This document shows, piece by piece, positions 16,148-28,759 of a stretch of DNA of 64,000 nt. The stretch lies in NCBI GenBank assembly GCA_019694435.1, contig JAIBBZ010000017.1, forward strand, positions 41,565 through 105,564, in the 5' to 3' direction. This DNA comes from Pirellulales bacterium. GTDB lineage: Bacteria; Planctomycetota; Planctomycetia; Pirellulales; JAEUIK01. The translations under genes and the position numbers were made by a program. The notes under the pieces were generated by a model. It searched no databases. It was not told the DNA's origin and saw only the letters and a program-made list of their open reading frames with translations. Every line of letters begins with the position of its first letter. Within the stretch, counting starts at the first letter, position 1.

Positions 16148-16348
16148 TTAGAACAGCGTGTAGATGAACGGGGCCGCGCCGCTGCCGGCAAACATGGCCA
16201 GAACGCCGACCAGGCCCACCACGAGCAGGATCGGCAGCAGCCACCACTTCTTGTTGTGCTTCAAGAAGTCGATGAACTCGGCAGCCAAGCTGGGCTGCGC
16301 CTCGTCGGCCATCTGTTCGAACTTCTTGCCTGGATCTTGAGGGCTCAT
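16148..16348 (-). CDS. DUF5989 / SxtK-like small single-pass membrane protein
   Basis: 66 aa: ...FLKHNKKWWLLPILLVVGLVGVLAMFAGSGAAPFIYTLF. Follows SxtJ-like and carbamoyltransferase genes. Confidence 0.85.
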   Translation of the reverse strand: MSPQDPGKKFEQMADEAQPSLAAEFIDFLKHNKKWWLLPILLVVGLVGVLAMFAGSGAAPFIYTLF

Positions 16349-16403
16349 GTTTGCTGCCGTGGAAACGAGGATCGTCGGGTGTGCCCTGGTCAGGGCTGTG
16401 AGT

Positions 16404-16814
16404 CTAGAACTGGCGCAGATACCGCTCTGGACCGCGATTGGGATTGTACGGTTCCCAATAGCTGGCTGCCGAGCGGTCGAGCTTGCGCCGCAAGGCATCT
16501 CGCCCGATCAGGCGGAACACCAGGGCCACAGGGGTGAAAATGCCAAAATAGATCAAGCCCAGGGCGAGGTGGGAGACCACGAAGCCAATCGGCCAGGTCA
16601 CCAGGCTTAGCCCCAGGAAGGGGTATTTCACCCACTGCGGATTGATCAGCGCCAGCCCGCGCAGCGCGATCGCCGCGACCCAGAAGACGATGGCCGTGGT
16701 TTCATGGCCGCGATACAGCGACCAGGGCGCAGCCACCAGGCCCAAGAGGAACATGCCGAACTCGGCAAATTCCCTGAGCGTCTTGTCCGAGGGGTTCCAG
16801 TTGAGTTGATGCAT
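16404..16814 (-). CDS. SxtJ family membrane protein
   Basis: LREF, hydrophobic helices, IYFGIFTPVALVFRLIGRDAL, SYW...YLRQF C-terminus. Confidence 0.85.
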   Translation of the reverse strand: MHQLNWNPSDKTLREFAEFGMFLLGLVAAPWSLYRGHETTAIVFWVAAIALRGLALINPQWVKYPFLGLSLVTWPIGFVVSHLALGLIYFGIFTPVALVFRLIGRDALRRKLDRSAASYWEPYNPNRGPERYLRQF

Positions 16815-16852
16815 GGCGGTTCGATTGCAGGTGCGGCGGGCAGACCCCGGCG

Positions 16853-18691
16853 CTAGTCCAGTTGGAATTGGGCCAGGTAGGCCTCGGCCTCGGCCTCGCT
16901 CAGCGGGCGCTGATCGTCCTTCTTCAATACGAAATTCTCGAGCACGAGCACGTCCATGTTGCTGCCCAGGAAGCAGCGATAGGCGTCCTCGGGCGTGCAG
17001 ACGATCGGCTCGCCTCGCACGTTGAAGCTGGTGTTGATCAGCACGGGGCTGCCGGTCTGCTGTTCGAACGCGCGGAGCAGCTTGTAATACCGTCCGTGCC
17101 GGTCAAGGTCGACCGTCTGGACGCGGGCCGAGTAATCGACGTGCGTCACGGCCGGCACCACGCTACGGGGCACCTTGAGCTTTTCGATACCTTCGAGACC
17201 GTCGGCCCGGCCGTTCACTTGCAGCCTTTTTCCGTCGCGCACCGGGGCCACGAGCAGCATGTAAGGGCTGTCCTCGAACGGCCGCATTTCGAAGTATTCG
17301 TCCACCTTTTCCTGCAACACGGCCGGGGCGAACGGGCGGAACGATTCGCGGAACTTGATCTTCAAGTTCATCGTCGACTGCATGGCCTCGCTGCGCGCAT
17401 CGCCCAGGATGCTGCGGGCGCCGAGCGCACGGGGACCGAACTCCATCCGGCCGGACAGCCAGCCGACGACCTTTTCGCTCGCCAGCAGCCGGGCGACTTC
17501 GTCGCAGAGCTTGTCTTCGTCCTCAATGTACGTGTAGGGCGCGTCGACCTTGCGGAGGAAGCGTTCGATTTGCGTGCGCGTGAATTGCGGGCCCAGCAGC
17601 GAGCCCTGTTGGGCATCGCGTGGCGAGGCTTGCCGTGGGTTGTCGAGGAGCTGGTAGTGGATGAACTCGGCCACGCCCAGGGCCCCGCCGGCGTCGCCCG
17701 CGGCCGGTTGAATCCAGATGTTCTCAAACGGCCCGTCGCGAAGAATGCGGCCGTTTCCCACGCAATTGAGCGCCACGCCGCCGGCGAGCACGAGGTTCCG
17801 GCAGCCGGTCGTCGTCTGCACGTGCCGGGCCGCACGCAGCATGATTTCTTCGGTCACGGCCTGGACCGACGCGGCGAGATCCATTTCGCGTTGCGTGACG
17901 CGCGATTCCGGCTCGCGCGGGGGACCGCCGAACAAGCGATGAAACTTGTCCGAGGTCATCGTCAGTCCCTGACAGTAGTTGAAATACGACATGTCCATCC
18001 GGAACGACCCGTCGAGCTTCAAGTCGATCAGGTGTTCGAGGATCAACGGCGCGAATCTCGGCGTCCCGTAGGGTGCCAGGCCCATCACCTTGTATTCACC
18101 GCTGTTGACCTTGAAGCCGGTGTAATAGGTGAAGGCCGAGTACAGCAGGCCGAGCGAGTGGGGAAAACTGAGTTGATGCGTGAGCTCGATGCGATTGCCG
18201 CGGCCCACGCCGAAACTGGCCGTCGCCCATTCGCCCACGCCGTCGAGCGTGAGGATGGCGGCCTCGTCGAAGGGCGAGGGGAAGAACGCGCTGGCCGCAT
18301 GTGACTCGTGGTGCTCGACGAATACGAATCGCTTCTTGTACTCTCCCTTGAGCCCTTCGGACATCGTCCGGGGCATGAACAGTTTCTCGCGAATCCACAG
18401 CGGCAGGGCCTTGCAGAACGAGCGGAAACCGGCCGGGGCGTACGCCAGGTAGGTCTCCAACAACCGCTCGAACTTCAACAGCGGCTTGTCGTAAAACCCA
18501 ACCCAGTCGAGTTCCGAAGCCTTGAGCCCTGCCTCGGCGAGACAGTATTCGATGGCATGCGTGGGGAAGCCGTAGTCGTGCTTCTTGCGGGTGAACCGCT
18601 CTTCCTGCGCGGCAGCTACGATCCGCCCGTCGACGACCAGGGCCGCCGCCGAATCGTGATAAAACGCCGAAATCCCGAGAATCGCCGCCAT
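16853..18691 (-). CDS. O-carbamoyltransferase (NodU/CmcH/TobZ/SxtI family)
   Basis: FYHDSAA, QEERFTRKKH, EHHESHAASAF, DGVGE, EYKVMGLAPYG, MEFGPRALGARS, KFRESFRPFAP, NTSFNVRGEP. Confidence 0.95.
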   Translation of the reverse strand: MAAILGISAFYHDSAAALVVDGRIVAAAQEERFTRKKHDYGFPTHAIEYCLAEAGLKASELDWVGFYDKPLLKFERLLETYLAYAPAGFRSFCKALPLWIREKLFMPRTMSEGLKGEYKKRFVFVEHHESHAASAFFPSPFDEAAILTLDGVGEWATASFGVGRGNRIELTHQLSFPHSLGLLYSAFTYYTGFKVNSGEYKVMGLAPYGTPRFAPLILEHLIDLKLDGSFRMDMSYFNYCQGLTMTSDKFHRLFGGPPREPESRVTQREMDLAASVQAVTEEIMLRAARHVQTTTGCRNLVLAGGVALNCVGNGRILRDGPFENIWIQPAAGDAGGALGVAEFIHYQLLDNPRQASPRDAQQGSLLGPQFTRTQIERFLRKVDAPYTYIEDEDKLCDEVARLLASEKVVGWLSGRMEFGPRALGARSILGDARSEAMQSTMNLKIKFRESFRPFAPAVLQEKVDEYFEMRPFEDSPYMLLVAPVRDGKRLQVNGRADGLEGIEKLKVPRSVVPAVTHVDYSARVQTVDLDRHGRYYKLLRAFEQQTGSPVLINTSFNVRGEPIVCTPEDAYRCFLGSNMDVLVLENFVLKKDDQRPLSEAEAEAYLAQFQLD

Positions 18692-19342
18692 GATCGCCGG
18701 TGCAGGAGTGACTGGAGAGGGCCGCCCCCTGAAGGAGGCCGTCGCCGAAATGGGGGGCGCGTAGCCGACGGTTGAGGAGCGAGGTCTACGGCGCCGATCG
18801 GTGCCCCGTGGCTAATTTGCTAGCTTCAAGGCCAGGGCGAACCTTGTCAAGCAATGCGCACCAGGGGAAAGCTGCGGATTGCCAGCAGCTTGCGCGAATG
18901 TTTCGAATGTCCGGTTCGTAGCGATCGCGGCGCAAACGGTCGTGCGCGCGGCGTTAGCGATTGGTTTGCCTGTGCCGCGCTCCGACGCCGATTTGTTCGC
19001 GGCGACAGGCTCCGGCCCCGGCGGCGCACGGTCGGAGGCCAAGTAAGATAGCGGTTTTGGTCAGAACAGGTATCGGGCCAGTGGACTCGCGGCGCTTCTG
19101 CCCTCTGGACAGGCGCGTCAGGGACGCCAAAATGGCCGGTTTCCGTTCCATCCGTCGGTCGTTCTCCGGATCGCGTCGTCTCGCTGGATTCGGGGTACCG
19201 CTTCGAGCAGGCTGCTCGCCGGAGTCATTCCGGATTCGGTGCCGACGGTTGACGCCGTTGCCCGCGACGGCTGCGTGAGTCCTGGTTTTGGCAGCGCACG
19301 CTGCAAACGTTTTTTTCCGGGTTTCGTTTGGGGGAGCCTGTT

Positions 19343-21097
19343 GTGGGTGAATACATCCTGGGTTTGCATGCCGGTCACAATGCCAGCGCCAGCATCGGCG
19401 ACAAGTCGGGGCTGATCTACGCGATCCAGGAGGAACGCCTCTGCGGCGAGAAGAACTATTGGGGGTTCCCCAAACACGCCATTCAGGCCTGTCTCGACTA
19501 TGTCGGCGCCACCAAGCGTGACGTGCTGGGTATGGCCTACGGCGGCAACCAGGCGCTGTGCCGGTATCACAGCCGCGACGACGTCATCTACTCCTACCGC
19601 CGCCAGGAATCGATGCTGGGCCGCGTCCGGCAAAGGGTCGCCATGCCGATCTGGACCGCGTTGCGTACCGATTTCGGCCAGGGCAAACTCCGCGAGCACC
19701 TCACCGAAGTCGGCTTCGGCGACGTGCCGCTGCAGTATCACAACCACCACCTCACGCACGGCGCGACCGCCTACTACGGTTTGCGGACCTCGCCCGACAA
19801 GCAATACCTCGTGCTGACGTGCGACGGGGCCGGCGACCAGCAGTGCGCCACGGTCCGCGTGATGGGCGGCGGCAAGCATGAGTTGATCGCCGCCACGCAC
19901 TGGGGCGAATCGCTCGGGGCGATTTACTCGTGGGTCACGTTCGGCATGGGGTTCATCCCCCTTGAGCACGAATACAAGCTGATGGGCATGGCTCCCTACG
20001 CCTCGGAGCACGGCACCGAGGAAGTGGCCAAGATCTTCCGCAAATACCTGGGCATTTCGCCCGACGGGCTGAGCTTCGAACGCAAGGCCCGGTGGCGGAT
20101 GAACGACGTCTACTACTCGGCGCTCGAACCGGATCTGCGCGGCGTGCGTTTCGACTACATCTGCGCCGGCCTGCAGAAGTTCACCGAAGAGATGCTCACC
20201 CAGTGGACCGCCAACGCGGTCAAGGCCACCGGCGTTCAGGACGTGCTCGTCGGCGGCGGCGTGTTCATGAACGTCAAGGCGAACAAGAAAATCGCCGAGC
20301 TGCCCGAGGTCAAATCGTTCCAGGGCTTCCCTTCGTGCGGCGACGAGACCTTGTCGATCGGCGCCTATTACCTCGAAGCGGCCCAGCGGTTCGGCGATGA
20401 AGCCGTACCGCCGATCAAGCACTACTACCTGGGCGACGAGCCCAAGGTCGAGGAAACCCGCGCCGCGCTGCAAAAGTCGGGCTTCTATTTCGAGCAGCCC
20501 GCCAACATGGCCGAGACCGTCGCCGAATTGCTCGTCGCCGGGCATCCCGTGGCCCGTTGTGCGGGGCGGATGGAGTTCGGCGCCCGGGCCTTGGGAAATC
20601 GTTCGATTCTCGGCGATCCGAAGAATCAGGACCTGGTGCGCGTGATCAACCGGATGGTCAAGAAACGCGACTTCTGGATGCCGTTCGCCCCGATGGTCAT
20701 CGAAGAGCGCCAACACGAGTACTTGCACAACGAAAAGAATCTGCCCAGCCCGTACATGATGATGACCTTCGACACCCGGGAGAATTTCCGCGACCTGATC
20801 GCGGCGGTGCACAACGCCGATCTGACCTGCCGGGCACAGTTGTTGCGGCGCGACCAGAATCCGGAGATGTACGACATTTGCAAGGCATTCGAACGCCGCA
20901 CCGGGCGCGCGGTGATTCTCAACACGTCGTTCAACCTGCACGGGTATCCGATCTGCCGTACCGCCGAGGACGCCCTGTTCGTCTTGCAGAATTCGGGGCT
21001 GGAATACCTCCAGGTGGGCGAGTTCCTGGTCCACAAAAACGGTCCGAACAGCAACGGCCAAAATGCCCGGGCGGCCGCCGGCGCGACGACCACCTGA
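19343..21097 (+). CDS. Second, divergent O-carbamoyltransferase (NodU/CmcH family)
   Basis: GHNASA, QEERL, HHLTH, DGAGD, EYKLMGMAPY, GGVFMNVKAN, MEFGARALGNRS, KRDFWMPFAP, NTSFNLHG. Start codon uncertain (19328 or 19343). Confidence 0.93.
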   Translation: MGEYILGLHAGHNASASIGDKSGLIYAIQEERLCGEKNYWGFPKHAIQACLDYVGATKRDVLGMAYGGNQALCRYHSRDDVIYSYRRQESMLGRVRQRVAMPIWTALRTDFGQGKLREHLTEVGFGDVPLQYHNHHLTHGATAYYGLRTSPDKQYLVLTCDGAGDQQCATVRVMGGGKHELIAATHWGESLGAIYSWVTFGMGFIPLEHEYKLMGMAPYASEHGTEEVAKIFRKYLGISPDGLSFERKARWRMNDVYYSALEPDLRGVRFDYICAGLQKFTEEMLTQWTANAVKATGVQDVLVGGGVFMNVKANKKIAELPEVKSFQGFPSCGDETLSIGAYYLEAAQRFGDEAVPPIKHYYLGDEPKVEETRAALQKSGFYFEQPANMAETVAELLVAGHPVARCAGRMEFGARALGNRSILGDPKNQDLVRVINRMVKKRDFWMPFAPMVIEERQHEYLHNEKNLPSPYMMMTFDTRENFRDLIAAVHNADLTCRAQLLRRDQNPEMYDICKAFERRTGRAVILNTSFNLHGYPICRTAEDALFVLQNSGLEYLQVGEFLVHKNGPNSNGQNARAAAGATTT

Positions 21098-21303: not shown

Positions 21304-21897
21304 ATGCAAACACAGCGCAACTATCGCGTGTCGATCGTCGAATGTCCGGACGGCTGGGAACCCAATTCGCTGGACGATTCGCCCGGCGGACTGCGCTGTA
21401 TCGAGGACATTGGCAGTCACGACGCGATTGAAGAAGCACTCGAACAGGTAATTGCCTTCAATCGCGGCGAGATTGACGACGGCCCCAAACGCTGGGCCGT
21501 GGTCTTCGAGCCGCCAGTTCGCGGCCGGTCGCACTATCGCGTGTGCACGCCGCTTACGTACCGACTCGTGCACATCCACTGGCCCGAGGGCTGGCAGCCC
21601 GAGTCGCCGCTCGACGTGCCGACCTGCTCTTGGCGAGATCAATCCGACACCAGCGGCGAATACGGCTTCGACGAGGCCATCGAGGCGGCGCGATCGCTGA
21701 ACGAGGCCCACCTGTTGGAACCCTCGTTCGAGCGTTGGACGATGGTCGTGGCCATCGAATGCGAGCCGCTGCACACCTCGATTTACTGTGATCATCTCGG
21801 CACCGAGACCAGCACTACCGTGCGCCGCCTGCACGTCGTGCGGCCCAACACCGGTTCGCGCGACAAGCTGTTTACGACGGTTCGCAGCTCGCACTAG
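21304..21897 (+). CDS. Hypothetical protein with two tandem copies of an unknown domain
   Basis: PDGWEPNSLDDSP...EEALEQVIAFN...RWAVV versus PEGWQPESPLDVP...DEAIEAARSLN...RWTMVV. Confidence 0.75.
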   Translation: MQTQRNYRVSIVECPDGWEPNSLDDSPGGLRCIEDIGSHDAIEEALEQVIAFNRGEIDDGPKRWAVVFEPPVRGRSHYRVCTPLTYRLVHIHWPEGWQPESPLDVPTCSWRDQSDTSGEYGFDEAIEAARSLNEAHLLEPSFERWTMVVAIECEPLHTSIYCDHLGTETSTTVRRLHVVRPNTGSRDKLFTTVRSSH

Positions 21898-23063
21898 GGC
21901 GACGGTGTTTCCGGCGCTGCGAGCCGCGCGCCGAGGTCTCGAGCGATCCGCTCGGCGACGACCGCGTTGCCCGGTTCGGAGAAGTGGCAAGAGTCGAGAT
22001 AGACGGCATCCCGCACGTCATCAAACATGGCCGTTAAGTCGGCGAATCGCGCAGTGGCGCGTAAGGCGTCGTTCGCCGCGAGCTGCCCGCGGACGTGCCC
22101 CAGCAGTTCCTTGAGCACCGGCCACGCCGAGGCCGCGGCCTGTTCTTCGCCCACGAGTTGACGCTTGTCGAACGCGGTGGGCTGCCAGTAGTACAGCGCC
22201 TCGAATCCTGCGCGGTGACGCGCTGCTTCGACCCAGGCTATGTTCGCGGCGTATATCCGGGCGACGTCTGCCCCGAGTTCGGCAAGCTTGGGCCGGCCGT
22301 CGCCGTCGAAGTGGCTGCGCGCGTCCTGTTCGGCCCCTAGGCGGCGGAGCAACCCACGCACCAGCCAAACCGTGGCCGAATCGAGCGCCTCTAGTTTCAG
22401 GGCCTCGGTCAGCCCGGCGTTGAGCTCCCGGCGGCGGTTGGCTTCGTTCTGCGGAATCCCAGCACGCGACTCCTGGACCGCCGACATGAGGTCGTTGTAG
22501 CCGTTAAGGAACACGACCGCGTCGGGCCTGCGTCCGGTGCGCAGCTCCATCTCCAAGGCCAGCGCGTCCTGCGTGCTGACGTAGCCGATCTGGCCGAAAT
22601 TGGTCACCACGGCCGGCCGGCCTTGGGCTGCCAAAGCAGCCGCCAGATTGGCAGGAATCGTATGGTCGTCGCGGGCCCCCCATCCCCAGACGGTCGAGCC
22701 GCCAAACATCCAGACGCGCAGCGCCTGCGGGTTGTCCTCGGCGGCTGGTTTCGTCCGCCGCAGGCCATCGGGACCGATGTGAATGTACCGGCCGTCGAGT
22801 GGCGCCGACCGCCAGTAGACGTAGGGCTCCCAAGAGATGCCCACGTCTCCCAGAAGTTCGTCCACGTAGTCCGGCGCCCAGTCGGCTCCGCGAAATCCGG
22901 AGCTGGCCGCGATGGCCGCGCGATCGCGGTCGCGCTTGACGTGCAGGACCACGCGCGCGGCTCCCTCGACGAGCAGCAGCCAGATCAACACCACGCCGAG
23001 CACCAGCCAGGCCGTGCGCAGCGCGGCCCCCAGCCTGCCTAGCGAAACCAACCACGCGCGCAT
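21894..23063 (-). CDS. Membrane-anchored SGNH/GDSL-family esterase/acyltransferase
   Basis: N-terminal TM helix, block I FGGST, block II NFGQIGY, block III NGYND, block V DSCH. Confidence 0.85.
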   Translation of the reverse strand: MRAWLVSLGRLGAALRTAWLVLGVVLIWLLLVEGAARVVLHVKRDRDRAAIAASSGFRGADWAPDYVDELLGDVGISWEPYVYWRSAPLDGRYIHIGPDGLRRTKPAAEDNPQALRVWMFGGSTVWGWGARDDHTIPANLAAALAAQGRPAVVTNFGQIGYVSTQDALALEMELRTGRRPDAVVFLNGYNDLMSAVQESRAGIPQNEANRRRELNAGLTEALKLEALDSATVWLVRGLLRRLGAEQDARSHFDGDGRPKLAELGADVARIYAANIAWVEAARHRAGFEALYYWQPTAFDKRQLVGEEQAAASAWPVLKELLGHVRGQLAANDALRATARFADLTAMFDDVRDAVYLDSCHFSEPGNAVVAERIARDLGARLAAPETPSP

Positions 23064-23148: not shown

Positions 23149-24294
23149 TCACAGGCCGAGCAGGCTGGCAATCAGCGTACGCTGAATTTCGTTGGTGCCC
23201 GAGTAGATCCGGCTGGCCAGCGCGTCACGCAGCTCGCGCTCGATCTGAAATTCGGTCATGTAGCCAGCGGCGCCGTGCAATTGCAGAGCGTCGAGACAGG
23301 TTTGCACCCACGACTCGCTCAGGTAGAGCTTTGCCATCGAGGCTTCCATCAAGGCACTCTTGCCGAGGCTCCGCAGCCAGGCGCCGTGGTAGAGCAGTTG
23401 CCGGGCCGTTTCGAGCCGCAGCTTCATATCGACCACCTTATTGGCGACCGATTGGAACTTGCCGATTGATTGACCGAACTGCTTGCGCTGCCGGGCGTGC
23501 TGCACGCAGGTTTCCAGCAACCGCTGCATCGAACCCACGGCGCTGGCCAGAATGCACCCGCGTTCCCAGGACATCGAGTGGGTGAACAAGCTTGTGCCGG
23601 CGCCCTCCCGGCCCAGGCGGTTTTGCTCGGGCACCTCGCAGTTCTCGAAAAACAGCTCGGCCATGGGCGACGTGCGCAGCCCCATCTTGTCGAGTTTGCG
23701 CCCCACGGTCATACCCGGAGTGTGCTTGTCGACCAGGAACGCCGTGATGCCCCGGGCGCCCTGGGCGCGATCGACCGTGGCGAACACCACGAGCAAGTCG
23801 GCCACGGGCCCGTTGGTGACCCAGATCTTGCTGCCGTTGAGTACGTAGCGATCGCCTTGCCGGGTGGCGCTGGTGCGTAGCGCGTATGAATCGGAGCCGG
23901 TGTCCGGCTCGCTCATCGCGTTGCCCCCGATGAGTTCGCCGCTGCAGAGTCCCGGCAGATAGCGTTGTTTCTGTTCCTCGGTGCCGAAGGCCACGAGCGG
24001 CATCGCAGCCGTCCACAGATGGGCGTTGAGCGAGAACACCAGGCCGTTGTCGGCGCAGGCATAACCGAGCCGTTCGAGCGCGCCGACCGTCGTGACCGCG
24101 TCCAGCCCAAGTCCGCCGTAGTCCTCGGGCACCGGCAGCCCTTGGATGCCGAACTTGCCGCATTCGCGCCAGCCGGCCAGGTCGAATTCCGCGGCCCGAT
24201 CGCGTTCGATCAACTCCTGCCCGAGTGACTTGCGGGCAAAACGCTCGATCGAGTCGAACAGCGTTTTTTGTTCGCTGGTCCAGCCGAATTCCAC
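23149..24294 (-). CDS. Acyl-CoA dehydrogenase family, L-prolyl-[PCP] dehydrogenase-like (PltE/RedW/PigA/AnaB type)
   Basis: GYACADNGLVFS, NAMSEPDTGSD, SMSWERGC, RKQFGQSIG, and IYSGT (Ser where general ACADs have Glu in YEGT). GTG start overlaps the upstream TAG. Confidence 0.85.
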   Translation of the reverse strand: MEFGWTSEQKTLFDSIERFARKSLGQELIERDRAAEFDLAGWRECGKFGIQGLPVPEDYGGLGLDAVTTVGALERLGYACADNGLVFSLNAHLWTAAMPLVAFGTEEQKQRYLPGLCSGELIGGNAMSEPDTGSDSYALRTSATRQGDRYVLNGSKIWVTNGPVADLLVVFATVDRAQGARGITAFLVDKHTPGMTVGRKLDKMGLRTSPMAELFFENCEVPEQNRLGREGAGTSLFTHSMSWERGCILASAVGSMQRLLETCVQHARQRKQFGQSIGKFQSVANKVVDMKLRLETARQLLYHGAWLRSLGKSALMEASMAKLYLSESWVQTCLDALQLHGAAGYMTEFQIERELRDALASRIYSGTNEIQRTLIASLLGL

Positions 24295-25895
24295 TAGGGC
24301 AACTCCTTCAGGCGCTGATAGTCGACCTTGTCGGTCGAAGTCGTCGGCAGGTCCGGGAGAAAGGCAAACAAGTCGGGCACCATGTAGAGCGGCAGCCGTT
24401 CGGAGCAGAATCGCTTGAGCGCGATGACTGACGCCTTTTCCCCTTCGTTCAGGCTGACGAAGGCCTTGACCCGGAGGCCTTCTTCCTCGTCGTGGACGGC
24501 GATCACCGCCGCCTGGCGGATGCCTGCGTGCTGATAGAGACACGCCTCGATCTCGCCCAGCTCGACCCGGTAGCCGCGTTTCTTCACCATGCGATCGCGC
24601 CGACCCCGGTAGAGATAGTCGCCCGCGGCATCGGTCGTCACCAGGTCGCCGGTGCGATACCACTTTTCGCCCGCGGCGTCGGTGAAATAGGCGTTGCGGG
24701 TCTGTTCCTCGAGTCCCCAGTAGCCGCGCGTCACGCTGGCTCCGGCCATGCACAGTTCGCCTGCCTCGCCGGGGGGCACATCGAGGCCTCGTTCGTCGAC
24801 GACGCGCGATCGCAGGTGCGAGCAGGTCTTGCCGATGGGAAAAGGCTCGCTGCGCTCGGGATCGATCGGCAACGGCACCTCGTAAAACGTGCAGACGTTT
24901 GTCTCGGTGGGGCCGTAGAGATTGAAGTATCGTCGGCCCGGCCACTGGGCGACCAGCTCGCGCAGGTGCTTGATCGGGAACACCTCACCGGCAAAGTGCA
25001 CGATCCGCAGGGCCGCGAAGTCGTGCGCTCCGAGCGACCCGTAACGGGCCAGCATCGTCAGGATCGATGGCGTCGAATACCACACGCTGATGCGGCGCTC
25101 TGCGATCAAGGGGGCCAGCTTGCCGGGCTCCTTGCCCGTTTCGTGGCTGATCAGCACGAGCGTAGCCCCGTGCTTGATGGGCACGTAGATGTCCAGAATC
25201 GACAAGTCAAAATGGAATGGCGCGTGCGAACTGAAACGGTCGTCCTCGTGCGGGTCGAGCGCCTCGCTGCACCAGTCGACGAACGACACGGCATTGCGCT
25301 GCGAAAGGATGACCCCCTTGGGCCGGCCCGTCGAGCCCGAGGTGTAGAGCAGATAGGCCAGGTCTTCGGGCTCGCCGATGACCGTTTCGGCCGCTGCGAA
25401 GGGCGCGGCCGTATGGGCCTCGGCCAGGGCCGCCTCGAGCGACGTACCATCGCCGGCACCGGGCAGCACCAAGAGTGGCGGGACGGCACCATATTGCGCG
25501 AGCTCGCTGCGCAACGCCTCGGCGAATCGCGCCTCGACGACCACGGCCTTAACGCTGCAGTTGCCGAACACAAACGCGGCCCGGCTCGTCGGGGCATGCG
25601 GATCGGCCGGCACATAGGCGGCGCCACACTTGAGTACTCCAAAGAGGGCAGCAACCGTGTCGATCGACTTGGTCACGTAGATGCCGACGCGATCGTTGCG
25701 GCCCAGGCCTTGTTGCCGCAGCCAATCGCGCAACCGGTCGGACAACACGGAGAGCAGCTCGTAAGTCACGGACCCGCCGCTGGCAGGATCCTCCACCGCG
25801 ACATGGTGCGGCCGGCGGGCGGCCGAGGCGTCGAGAAACTGGGCGAGCGCCGTGACCCGGGCGGTCGCCGGCGGCGTCAAGGTGGCCTGCGTCAT
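24294..25895 (-). CDS. Stand-alone amino-acid adenylation enzyme, L-proline-[PCP] ligase-like (PltF/RedM/PigI/AnaC type)
   Basis: YTSGSTGRPKG, FDLS, NLYGPTE, YRTGD, GYRVELGEIE, DKVD. Manually read specificity code DLLYHALVCK. Confidence 0.88.
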   Translation of the reverse strand: MTQATLTPPATARVTALAQFLDASAARRPHHVAVEDPASGGSVTYELLSVLSDRLRDWLRQQGLGRNDRVGIYVTKSIDTVAALFGVLKCGAAYVPADPHAPTSRAAFVFGNCSVKAVVVEARFAEALRSELAQYGAVPPLLVLPGAGDGTSLEAALAEAHTAAPFAAAETVIGEPEDLAYLLYTSGSTGRPKGVILSQRNAVSFVDWCSEALDPHEDDRFSSHAPFHFDLSILDIYVPIKHGATLVLISHETGKEPGKLAPLIAERRISVWYSTPSILTMLARYGSLGAHDFAALRIVHFAGEVFPIKHLRELVAQWPGRRYFNLYGPTETNVCTFYEVPLPIDPERSEPFPIGKTCSHLRSRVVDERGLDVPPGEAGELCMAGASVTRGYWGLEEQTRNAYFTDAAGEKWYRTGDLVTTDAAGDYLYRGRRDRMVKKRGYRVELGEIEACLYQHAGIRQAAVIAVHDEEEGLRVKAFVSLNEGEKASVIALKRFCSERLPLYMVPDLFAFLPDLPTTSTDKVDYQRLKELP

Positions 25896-25902
25896 GGGTC
25901 GT

Positions 25903-26163
25903 TCAACCAGCTTGTTTTTCACCGACCAGGCGCACGATGTCGGCGATCGTATTCAGGTACTCGACGTCGGCCTCGTGTGCGGCGATGCCGATGTTGAAAC
26001 GCTCTTCGAGAAACGTGACCAGCTTCAGAATGCCCACCGAGTCGAGGATGCCGGTCGTAATCAATTCGGTGTCCGCAGTCAGTTCGTCGGGGTTTTCTCC
26101 GGGGAGAAAGTTGTCCAAGATGAATTGCTTGACGGCCACGGCGGCCGTGGGATCGAGGGTCAT
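25903..26163 (-). CDS. Acyl/peptidyl carrier protein (type II PCP, PltL/RedO/DltC-like)
   Basis: 86 aa, acidic, GILDSVG phosphopantetheine motif. Confidence 0.9.
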   Translation of the reverse strand: MTLDPTAAVAVKQFILDNFLPGENPDELTADTELITTGILDSVGILKLVTFLEERFNIGIAAHEADVEYLNTIADIVRLVGEKQAG

Positions 26164-26179
26164 GGATGCTCCCGGGGCC

Positions 26180-28759
26180 TTAAGGAATTGCAGAAACGGT
26201 CGGCGCGGCGACGAGCGGCCGCAGTTTTTCATAGAGCCGGTCGGCGATCAGTTCATGCCCCCGCGGCCCGGGATGCGAGTCCCAGGTTTCGACCCACAGC
26301 TCGTTCCAGTCGCGAACGCCGTGATAGGCGCGCGTCAGGTCCCAAACGGTGAAGCCGGTTGCTTCGGCCGCGGCAATCAACTCGGGCAGTTGTTCGAGCT
26401 CCCAGGAACGGTCGTCGAGCCGCGGCAGGAAGGCATAGATCGGCCGAATGCCTGCCGCGCGGCACTGCTCAATCGTCTGGCCATACACCCAGCCGACCAG
26501 TTCCTGGGAACGGCCTTGCAATTGATGCTCGACGACGCGGGCACCATCGCCGGACCGCAATTGATACTCTTCGACGATCTGCCGCACGAAAAGGTCGGGG
26601 AGCGGCAATTCGCGGGCCAGGCAGCGCGCGATGTCGCGCAACACCCATTCCTGGTCGTTCACGCCGAAGAAGATCGCCACATCGGGCTTGAACGCGAGCA
26701 CCTTGTTCTTCAGGCAGTGCAGCCGTGCGTAGGGGCCATAGCTAGGCACCGCGAAATTCATCAGTTCGCAGGCTGGCCGCTGGGGCGTGCCGAATTCGGC
26801 GTTCAGCCGCGCTTCGACGAGCTGCTCGAACACGTGTTGATCGCTCACATGGTGACCTGCCGTGTTCGAATCGCCGAGAATCGCGATGCGCAGCACCCCT
26901 GGCGTCCGCTCGAGGGGATACTCTTGATCCCGCATTCCGTGGCGGTTGTTCGACTGACGAAAGTGGCCCTGGGTGTGGCTGAGCCGGGGAATGTATTCCC
27001 AATTGGGAAACTTGTTGTCCGGGCGATCGTATTCGAACGTCGCGGCGTTCCAGTCTTGCGGGCGCGCCGCATAGAGCTCGGCCAGTTCGGCGTTGTTACG
27101 ATCCTGATCGATCAAATCCTCGTAATAGCCGCGCTCGAGCTTGGCCACGTCTTGCGCATTCAGGGTTTGCCGGGTGAGCCGGTCGAGCGCGTTGGCCACT
27201 TGCGGATAGTCGGCAAACAACAGCGGATTGCGGCCCACGATGAACAGCGCCGCGGACAAGGCGCCCGTCACGAGTGCCGATCGCCAGAATTCTGCGTCAG
27301 CCGCTTCGTTACGGCGCTGCCGCGGGGCATCGGTCCGCTCGCTCGAGGAATGACCCCACAGCACGGCGGCGACGCCAAACAGGGCGAGCCCCCCGAAGAT
27401 CAGCACGGCGTCGATCGGCGACATCACGGCGAACTTCGACAAGAGCGAGGTCCACTCGTGCCAAGACGGCGTGTTCCACAGCGACCACAGCAGGCAGATG
27501 AACGTGAACATCGCGATCGTCCGCAGGGCAAAGGCGAACTCGTCACGCCAGGTGCGGCTGCCCTTGGTGAGTTTGCGCTTGCGAGTCGCGCGGGCCTCGT
27601 AGGCCACGTTCAGCACGACGCCGACACCGAGGATCGTCCAGAAGGCGATGTCCTGCCAGGTAACCAGAAAATGGCCGCTGAGCCAGAAGAACTGATACGA
27701 GTGCAAACACCAGGTGGCGAAGAACGCCAACGCGGTGGCCGCCAACAGGCCGAACAACTCGCCCCGTCGCTTGAGCCGGAAGTAGATCGGGTAGAAGAAC
27801 AGCTTCTGGATGAAGTCCTTCCAGTAGATGTTGATCCTGCGCCAGAAGTCAGTGAAGCTCGAGGCGAGCAAGTAGCGGTGGTGCGTCTCGGAGAGGTTGA
27901 AACCGAAGAGGTGCAGCAAGCCCACGATCAGGTGAAAATTGCCCGAAACCCGCAGGTAAAGCAGGAAATTGGCCAGGATATATTGTGCCGCGTCGCGGGC
28001 GTTCGCCACGTGGTGCGTATCGATCACCAGGTTCTGGTACACGAAGCGGTAGAGAATCAACTGGATCACGCCGCGCACGATCCAGTCGACGCCCTTTTGG
28101 TAGATCTCGAACGCGTCGCGATTGTAGCGCGTGCGGAGAAACGTCTTGTAATCGACGATGGGGAACAGCGTGAAGCATGCGTTGGGGGCCATGAAGAAGT
28201 AGGCCAGCGTGGACCAGAGCTCGCCTTTGGCCGCGCCGGTCTGCAGATCGTAGACGTAGATCAGCAGCCGGAACATGAACAGCCCGGCGAGAATCGGCAG
28301 AATCGCGTGTAATTCCGGCAACGTGCCGTAGGCACGCAGCCAGCCGAGCCCGATGCCCAGCGCTACCAGCAGGGCCACGCGCATCCACAATCGAAAAGGC
28401 AAATGGACGACGCCGATCAGCAATGCTCCCAGCCCGATCACGTACAGCCCGTTGATCCCCATCAGCACGACGATCAACGCCAGCGAAAACACACCGAAGA
28501 AGGGCAGTCGCATCCGCGTTGGCAGCAGGTGATGAATGACGAAGCCGGCGCAGATCAATGCGAACTGGTAACGAAAGGCGCGCTTGTCGATCTGCCACAC
28601 CGAAAGCACCAGGGCCACAAGCGCCAATTGCATGCAAAGGGCCAGCAGCCGCGCGGTGGCCACGGCCAACGCCCGCAGCCGCTGGAGGCGTTCGTCCGGG
28701 TGGGTGATTTGAGCTTGTTCGAAAGGGTGGGCTGCGGATTGGGTGAGTGAGGTCGCCAT
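26180..28759 (-). CDS. MBOAT O-acyltransferase (AlgI/DltB-like) fused to a C-terminal SGNH domain
   Basis: Many TM helices, GFNL...YLLASSFTDFWRRINIYW, TWCLHSYQ. C-terminal GDS, NFAVPSYG, GVND, DSHPGPRGH. Confidence 0.85.
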   Translation of the reverse strand: MATSLTQSAAHPFEQAQITHPDERLQRLRALAVATARLLALCMQLALVALVLSVWQIDKRAFRYQFALICAGFVIHHLLPTRMRLPFFGVFSLALIVVLMGINGLYVIGLGALLIGVVHLPFRLWMRVALLVALGIGLGWLRAYGTLPELHAILPILAGLFMFRLLIYVYDLQTGAAKGELWSTLAYFFMAPNACFTLFPIVDYKTFLRTRYNRDAFEIYQKGVDWIVRGVIQLILYRFVYQNLVIDTHHVANARDAAQYILANFLLYLRVSGNFHLIVGLLHLFGFNLSETHHRYLLASSFTDFWRRINIYWKDFIQKLFFYPIYFRLKRRGELFGLLAATALAFFATWCLHSYQFFWLSGHFLVTWQDIAFWTILGVGVVLNVAYEARATRKRKLTKGSRTWRDEFAFALRTIAMFTFICLLWSLWNTPSWHEWTSLLSKFAVMSPIDAVLIFGGLALFGVAAVLWGHSSSERTDAPRQRRNEAADAEFWRSALVTGALSAALFIVGRNPLLFADYPQVANALDRLTRQTLNAQDVAKLERGYYEDLIDQDRNNAELAELYAARPQDWNAATFEYDRPDNKFPNWEYIPRLSHTQGHFRQSNNRHGMRDQEYPLERTPGVLRIAILGDSNTAGHHVSDQHVFEQLVEARLNAEFGTPQRPACELMNFAVPSYGPYARLHCLKNKVLAFKPDVAIFFGVNDQEWVLRDIARCLARELPLPDLFVRQIVEEYQLRSGDGARVVEHQLQGRSQELVGWVYGQTIEQCRAAGIRPIYAFLPRLDDRSWELEQLPELIAAAEATGFTVWDLTRAYHGVRDWNELWVETWDSHPGPRGHELIADRLYEKLRPLVAAPTVSAIP

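Follow-up and report, generated by a model that had tools for sequence, protein, structure and literature searches.

The closest described counterpart of the genes considered here is the teichoic-acid D-alanylation system DltX/DltB/DltD, in which a membrane microprotein carries a terminal FXYXXF motif with an invariant tyrosine and has a partner of the SGNH family. This is the shuttle motif of both DltX and PatA; the acyl-tyrosine has been shown for PatA, and a downhill order from tyrosine to serine has been described for acyl groups (PMC12148441, in the sections drawn on here). Our subject is a 64,000-nucleotide stretch of DNA (the window) from Pirellulales bacterium (GenBank assembly GCA_019694435.1, contig JAIBBZ010000017.1, positions 41,565 to 105,564), in which genes for a carbamoyltransferase (CT), an SxtJ membrane protein and a DUF5989 microprotein (the peptide) follow one another on the minus strand. 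On balance we incline to the view that the peptide is a covalent carrier, its tail tyrosine taking a carbamoyl group from the CT and passing it to an SGNH protein, in a relay independent of any membrane-bound O-acyltransferase (MBOAT).

The peptide differs from DltX in family and in loader: of the 33 Pfam families matched by 78 peptides at E up to 5, the 25 listed do not include DltX, no MBOAT or acyl carrier protein (ACP) is linked to it, and the loader here would be a soluble, ATP-dependent CT together with SxtJ. With modest confidence we would describe it as a new variant of the tyrosine shuttle, working like DltX while belonging to the DltX family neither by sequence nor by loader. The MBOAT-SGNH pairs PatA/PatB and AlgI/AlgJ and AT3-SGNH fusions such as OatA are alike in the tyrosine-to-serine transfer logic proposed here; they differ in that the loader here does not bear the motif, which stands instead on a free microprotein, on a soluble protein or at the C-terminus of an SGNH protein, and in that the block II glycine of the SGNH proteins is mostly kept.

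Enzymes of the NodU/TobZ family convert ATP and carbamoyl phosphate to carbamoyl-AMP, then carbamoylate a hydroxyl. As donors, carbamoyl phosphate and carbamoyl-AMP are both labile and cytoplasmic, and TobZ, NovN, GdmN and NodU are known to act directly on small acceptors. The peptide-linked CTs depart from these four: they form their own clade, with specific residues, and score far below the NodU equivalog cut-off. The crocagin cluster is alike in holding a CT (CgnI) and an SGNH-fold protein (CgnD) together. So is the saxitoxin cluster, whose SxtK we take to be a DUF5989 protein, the agreement being one of gene order and length only. There a CT, SxtJ, a 54-residue protein (165 bp) and a GDSL protein stand in a row, with sxtI, J, K and L listed consecutively; as far as the cited parts of the papers go, SxtL is proposed to be a decarbamoylase and J and K are given no function (PMC2679770), both being listed as hypothetical in PMC2684587. 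The corresponding part of PMC3037375 describes Lyngbya wollei, in which sxtI is truncated and sxtL is missing, with an acyltransferase present instead; loss of sxtL along with truncation of sxtI fits both a relay and a hydrolase reading. The module of the window differs in that it ends a polysaccharide locus.

The literature searched (subscription papers lay outside its scope) yielded no paper naming DUF5989, none joining carbamoyltransferase, SGNH, tyrosine and shuttle, and no route for carbamoylation outside the cytoplasm by such a module; the one paper joining SxtJ with membrane, carbamoyl and polysaccharide was a saxitoxin preprint.

The peptide and its tail

A preliminary description of the window had noted a 66-residue reading frame with a basic KHNKK patch, one hydrophobic stretch, a GSGAAP linker and a terminal FIYTLF, lying directly downstream of a CT gene and an SxtJ gene whose product ends in YLRQF. 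All of these elements are present in the minus-strand translation, and Pfam and the coordinates bear out the order CT, SxtJ, peptide. The DUF5989 match (PF19451) is strong (70.9 bits against a cut-off of 27, E 8.9e-20) and is the one such match in the genome; a start at 16348 agrees with the nearest homologues, many of which are likewise 66 residues long and align with the query over its full length. No PDB sequence matched the peptide under E 1.

Endings of this type are rare: among open reading frames (ORFs) of at least 25 codons in the window the peptide alone ends in Y-x-x-F/W, and of 1548 called genes sampled from the genome a single one ends in Y-x-x-F (as FIYFQF). The tail is therefore not a chance one. 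The tyrosine stands at position −4 in 120 of the 120 nearest homologues. Clustered at 50% identity the family comprises 2416 clusters, and in the best 150 of these the tyrosine lies within the motif in 149 representatives (at −4 in 144), with FxYxxF at the C-terminal end in 134; the lone representative without it looks frameshifted. It is retained in all 101 copies across the 92 planctomycete loci described below. The sets were recruited with profiles that cover the tail, which biases these counts towards it, and 80 further loci from named genomes, recruited with a tail-containing pattern, were left out of the tyrosine count. The alignment thus answers the preliminary description's question about an invariant tyrosine with one that is near-invariant among distant representatives.

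The free peptides carry on average 2.7 Lys plus Arg before the helix and none in the last 13 residues. The N-in, C-out orientation that had been suggested stands as a prediction from this charge bias and from the helix parity of the fusions described below.

Some relatives are built differently. A Ser/Thr kinase domain precedes the peptide in one lineage (P0127-P0129); the kinase and other long DUF5989 fusions were dropped as evidence, being few and some of them probably frame artefacts, and long open frames spanning several matches are out-of-frame reads of the upstream gene. A natural SxtJ-DUF5989 fusion of 205 residues occurs at L102:9949-10566. Further copies of the peptide, a few of them arranged in tandem, have no CT and lie beside a cytidylyltransferase-like gene and mostly also an outer-membrane efflux gene (L032, L045, L047, L076, L078, L100, L120).

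Linkage to carbamoyltransferases and SGNH proteins

DUF5989 was present in 72 of 151 sampled planctomycete genomes, from which all 99 other matches were fetched as 92 loci, with genes called by a custom script; a second set held the top-scoring 80 of 401 loci in named genomes, spanning Nitrospira, rhizobia, Omnitrophota, Pelagibacteraceae, Acidobacteriota, Bdellovibrionales, Balneola and others. Within 3.5 kb of the peptide a CT was found in 66 of the 92 planctomycete loci, 56 of these 66 also having SxtJ, 31 an SGNH gene and none an MBOAT; in the named loci the counts were 71 for CT, 69 for SxtJ, 35 for SGNH and 2 for MBOAT, both MBOATs having a terminal motif of their own and one of them lying near a CT-linked peptide. 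By genome (70 genomes), a CT was present in 37 of 37 that carry the peptide versus 8 of 33 that do not. Gene order varies, with the SGNH gene between core genes in six loci; on pSymB of Sinorhizobium meliloti 1021, near 484.4 kb, the order is SxtJ, peptide, CT, with a divergently oriented SGNH gene. A Pfam scan of 110 of 117 flanking proteins found no MBOAT, no further SGNH protein and no common neighbour.

SGNH genes are enriched beside these CTs. Control regions came from 115 CT matches, giving 60 regions away from the peptide, mostly of the higher-scoring matches; two of these had no CT call and four held CTs of the peptide-linked type, leaving 54 other CTs. An SGNH gene lay within 2.5 kb of 53 of 119 peptide-linked CTs (26/54 and 27/65) versus 1 of the 54 controls. 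The SGNH profile had been trained on linked genes, so the control neighbours were rechecked with Pfam: in 132 of 170 of them no SGNH family was among the 25 commonest Pfam families, hence at most 3 occurred. The co-occurrence count proposed in the preliminary description thus came out in favour of a link.

The window CT has the Carbam_trans_N and _C domains, a GPRALG motif and no signal peptide, and matches TobZ, NovN, GdmN and NodU as the same two-domain family (E 1e-124 to 1e-102); at 144.8 bits against a cut-off of 1000 it is not a NodU equivalog (NF041651). A tree of 125 CTs, rooted at the midpoint, has a 64-member clade (support 0.993) that takes in the 58 high-scoring CTs of peptide loci, a result that is partly circular, the 58 having been chosen by score; the other members are the four controls linked to SxtJ, with the peptide at another place in their genomes, and two CTs of the soluble variant described below. 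Clade members share Y11, Y67, K69, K73 and F74 and are more hydrophobic at residues 71-105. There are exceptions: divergent CTs also stand beside the peptide in three loci (L112, L114, L119), and one peptide-bearing genome (G034) has no clade-type CT among the four of its five CTs that were fetched.

SxtJ has a conserved core (P95, D106 and YW119-120), D106 and W120 being its most conserved residues. Its terminal YxRQF is only 60-77% conserved, and YLRQF as a second shuttle was rejected, Tyr132 being only 65% conserved. In three loci a protein that by eye is ferritin-like, with an SxtJ-like tail, replaces SxtJ beside divergent CTs and the peptide (L114:7380-8147, L119:7396-8181, L121:6653-7342).

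Structure prediction for the CT, SxtJ and the peptide together scored 0.42, against 0.03 for the best of three controls, one in which the CT was replaced; agreement between runs covers at least 89% of contacts, with partner pLDDT of at least 66. The mark for a complex was reached by 116 of 157 solved complexes and 2 of 215 mismatches; both of these mismatches, but only 18 of the solved complexes, did so with a score of 0.60 or less. The predicted complex thus has weak support. The preliminary description had asked whether the tyrosine docks in an active site; the score does not place it.

In 11 loci the SGNH protein and the peptide form one chain (L033, L034, L035, L036, L037, L038, L040, L041, L042, L043, L044), encoded behind a CT and a short SxtJ that corresponds to the C-terminal half. 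All 56 homologues of the fusion at E 1e-40 or better (P0137-P0192) have both domains, and invariant among them are GDS, Asn157 and DxH, an intact catalytic triad, together with PFIYTLF. Pfam assigns the SGNH part to ALGX and GDSL_2. An AlphaFold2 model (pLDDT 90.5, pTM 0.84) shows an N-terminal helix, the SGNH domain, four long helices and the tail; with basic loops inside and by helix parity, it predicts the SGNH domain and the tail on the same, outer side. Foldseek confirmed the SGNH fold, with CgnD of the crocagin cluster as top match (8a2n, E 1e-7). Among separate linked SGNH proteins, 61 of 63 have an N-terminal hydrophobic segment.

A soluble variant of the module occurs elsewhere in the window's own genome, G000 (G000:C52:426867-430808, equivalent to L123:4868-8809). 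It comprises a third CT, of the peptide-linked clade, a 122-residue protein without a hydrophobic helix that ends in LCYTMF, a 188-residue protein with a weak DUF6875 match, and an SGNH protein without a signal anchor. Four relatives of the 122-residue putative carrier were found (L127, L128, L275, L276): two on metagenome contigs, one in 250 other planctomycete genomes and one among 401 from Pseudomonadota; there were none in 251 Acidobacteriota genomes or in the plasmids searched, and a weak match in L126 was dropped because it lies inside a long unrelated ORF. In all five, which make up one family, the carrier directly follows the CT, with tyrosine at −4 and phenylalanine at −1 (one ends in SPFIYVMF); the four full-length CTs score 879-915 bits, and the SGNH protein is anchor-less in the three loci long enough to include it. 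Carrier and SGNH protein thus lose their anchors together and the tail is kept, which is the best evidence here, if from only five sequences of one family, that the tail has to come into contact with both enzymes. The carrier has no Pfam or NCBIfam match, its model (pLDDT 66) no Foldseek match under E 1, and its Atlas matches were under 0.9. Its N-terminal half aligned with the SxtJ core in hhalign (probability 19.7%, E 0.0012; 14.8% with all five sequences), as did the fusion's N-terminal anchor (E 0.0024); homology of the carrier to SxtJ is only a lead.

A proposed carbamoyl relay and its rivals

In the relay that we favour, the conserved core of SxtJ would dock the cytoplasmic CT at the membrane and shape a cleft for the tail; the uncharged 13-residue tail would dip back through the cleft between SxtJ and the peptide to reach the CT; the CT would carbamoylate the tyrosine of PFIYTLF; a membrane-anchored SGNH protein would take the carbamoyl on its serine, both adducts and the direction of this step being putative; and that protein would hand the group on to a hydroxyl beyond the cytoplasm, a surface glycan being the likeliest acceptor. 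An aryl carbamate is a known type of carbamoyl donor to active-site serines.

If so, this would be a third trans-membrane modification route, beside MBOAT-SGNH and AT3-SGNH: an ATP-driven soluble CT loads a Tyr-tailed microprotein that moves through a cleft of SxtJ and DUF5989, and the carbamoyl passes to a periplasmic SGNH protein; the relay would also occur in an entirely soluble form, with carriers of a family not yet described, and SxtL, perhaps also CgnD, would be carbamoyl transferases and not hydrolases. We put this wider proposal forward tentatively, at a little under even chances. It would give functions to two families of unknown function, extend the tyrosine shuttle to a loader without a membrane tunnel, and reopen the roles given to SxtJ, SxtK and SxtL. 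The module is common and occurs in a tractable host, S. meliloti 1021; in the soluble variant the key step can be tested with three soluble proteins.

The preliminary description had already proposed that the CT, SxtJ and the peptide relay carbamoyl to an SGNH protein. Invariance of the tyrosine, the predicted topology, linkage to SGNH proteins against controls, the fusions and the soluble variant speak for it; the linked SGNH proteins mostly lack the block II mark of transferases, and the window's own anchored SGNH gene, offered as an example, could not be assigned as partner, nor a glycan as acceptor.

Several further points weigh against the relay. No channel or tunnel protein is present to bring an outside tail to a cytoplasmic CT. 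The complex prediction gave no contacts in its output, so its score could reflect the cytoplasmic N-helix of the peptide and not the tyrosine, and the tail of the fusion model is of low confidence (pLDDT about 60). About half of the CT-linked loci have no nearby SGNH gene (23 of 48 have one where both flanks are full), and a CT is missing within 3.5 kb of 31 of the 101 peptide copies. Nor do the genomes count as independent samples, and a single lineage probably accounts for the fusions. Block II of the linked SGNH proteins has Gly in 37, Ser or Asn in 12 and another residue in 11 of the 60 that could be matched (15 of 75 could not); in the part of PMC12148441 cited here, Gly is tied to hydrolases. 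By the Ser/Asn mark of PatB and OatA, most of the linked proteins thus fall outside that transferase group. They are also diverse, and none of the genome's 25 SGNH proteins stands out as partner: by best hits these are mostly 22-38% identical to linked and unlinked SGNH proteins alike. CgnD is reported to be a slow protease that releases a core peptide (PMC10070186, as far as the part cited goes). Finally, copies of the family do occur near MBOATs: one precedes an MBOAT-SGNH pair (L096/L279), and at L040:2046-7142 genes for a divergent DUF5989-like peptide and an SGNH protein run towards those for a motif-less MBOAT, ACP and AMP-binding enzyme. The latter locus may be a bridge between two uses of the tail, the family perhaps serving MBOATs at its fringe, though nothing suggests this for the peptide of the window.

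The main rival, which we consider unlikely, makes SxtJ and the peptide an anchor and activator: they would tether the CT to the cytoplasmic face and turn it on there, the CT would transfer carbamoyl straight to a small molecule or a lipid-linked sugar, the tail would be a non-covalent dock, and the SGNH protein a later, decarbamoylating hydrolase. This has no topology problem, and it accommodates the block II glycine, the half of loci without an SGNH gene, the dependence of the complex score on the CT, the hydrophobic segment of the CT clade, and the published proposal of SxtL as decarbamoylase (the cited parts of PMC2679770 and PMC3037375). It leaves unexplained why the tail is predicted on the side of the SGNH protein, why peptide and SGNH protein are fused, why carrier and SGNH protein lose their anchors jointly, and why replacement of the tyrosine by phenylalanine is nearly absent.

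Another possibility, which we think quite improbable, keeps the relay on one side: the tail would be re-entrant, loaded and unloaded at the cytoplasmic face, as in the soluble variant. That variant does show that CT, tail and SGNH protein can share a compartment, and the uncharged tail would suit re-entry; the N-terminal hydrophobic segment that precedes the large soluble domain of nearly all linked SGNH proteins speaks against it, as do the loop charges of the fusion, from which an outside SGNH domain is predicted.

That the peptide instead serves the nearby MBOAT of the window, as the DltX equivalent of an MBOAT-SGNH fusion carrying an acyl group from ACP, is very improbable: the fusion does lack a terminal FXYXXF, as had been noted, lies 10 kb from the peptide with an ACP and an AMP-binding enzyme, and has a parallel in the divergent copy at L040, but an MBOAT lies within 3.5 kb in 0 of 66 and 1 of 71 CT-linked loci, a full-length fusion homologue exists in a genome without a DUF5989 match (G120), a GYYE that precedes the SGNH domain both there and in the window fusion could act as an internal shuttle (n = 2), and the MBOAT of L275, also without the motif, comes with an unrelated 55-residue peptide of its own.

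The window and its acylation genes

The trio ends a long minus-strand polysaccharide locus (window 13407-63976) with NeuB, epimerases, a flippase, a Wzy-like protein, glycosyltransferases and a NusG-like gene; no other sxt genes were seen in the window. PSCyt domains and the labels of homologues mark the window as planctomycete. The SGNH gene and the MBOAT-like protein of the preliminary description both exist (Table 1). A promoter and terminator scan was uninformative.

Table 1. Features of the module and its surroundings, in window coordinates
Position	Strand	Feature	Basis
16148..16348	-	DUF5989 (SxtK-like) single-pass microprotein, 66 aa, terminal PFIYTLF; proposed carrier Tyr63	Pfam, translation
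16151..16168	-	Codons of the FIYTLF hexapeptide (FXYXXF motif)	Translation; motif definition from the cited part of PMC12148441
16404..16814	-	SxtJ membrane protein, 136 aa, ends YLRQF; putative membrane dock for the CT	PF19588
16853..18691	-	NodU/TobZ-family O-carbamoyltransferase (CT), SxtJ/DUF5989-linked clade	Pfam, tree
19328..21097	+	Second, divergent CT, between trio and SGNH gene	Outside peptide-linked clade
21894..23063	-	N-terminally anchored SGNH protein at the end of the adjacent MBOAT/ACP gene run; no more than a candidate partner	Pfam
23149..28759	-	Separate acylation unit: MBOAT-SGNH fusion, acyl carrier protein, AMP-binding enzyme, acyl-CoA dehydrogenase	Not assigned to peptide
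26180..28759	-	MBOAT-SGNH fusion	Pfam sees SGNH part only

The second CT of the window, which the preliminary description did not mention, scores 278 bits, against 720 or more, and is probably not part of the module. The MBOAT part of the fusion rests on weak BLAST matches (E 5e-5 to 5e-4) and on alignment to AlgI-like proteins. Its GYYE follows the last helix and precedes the SGNH domain; the tetrapeptide recurs in the homologue at L272:1441-3939, which is likewise found with an ACP, an AMP-binding enzyme and an acyl-CoA dehydrogenase, and may be an internal tyrosine shuttle of such fusions, to judge from these two sequences. The motif-less MBOAT of L275 belongs to a Dlt-like run in a member of the Pseudomonadota (L275:7196-11738), with ACP-sized and ligase-sized proteins, the DltB-like MBOAT itself, the 55-residue non-DUF5989 peptide, which ends in FLYGRF, and an anchored SGNH protein.

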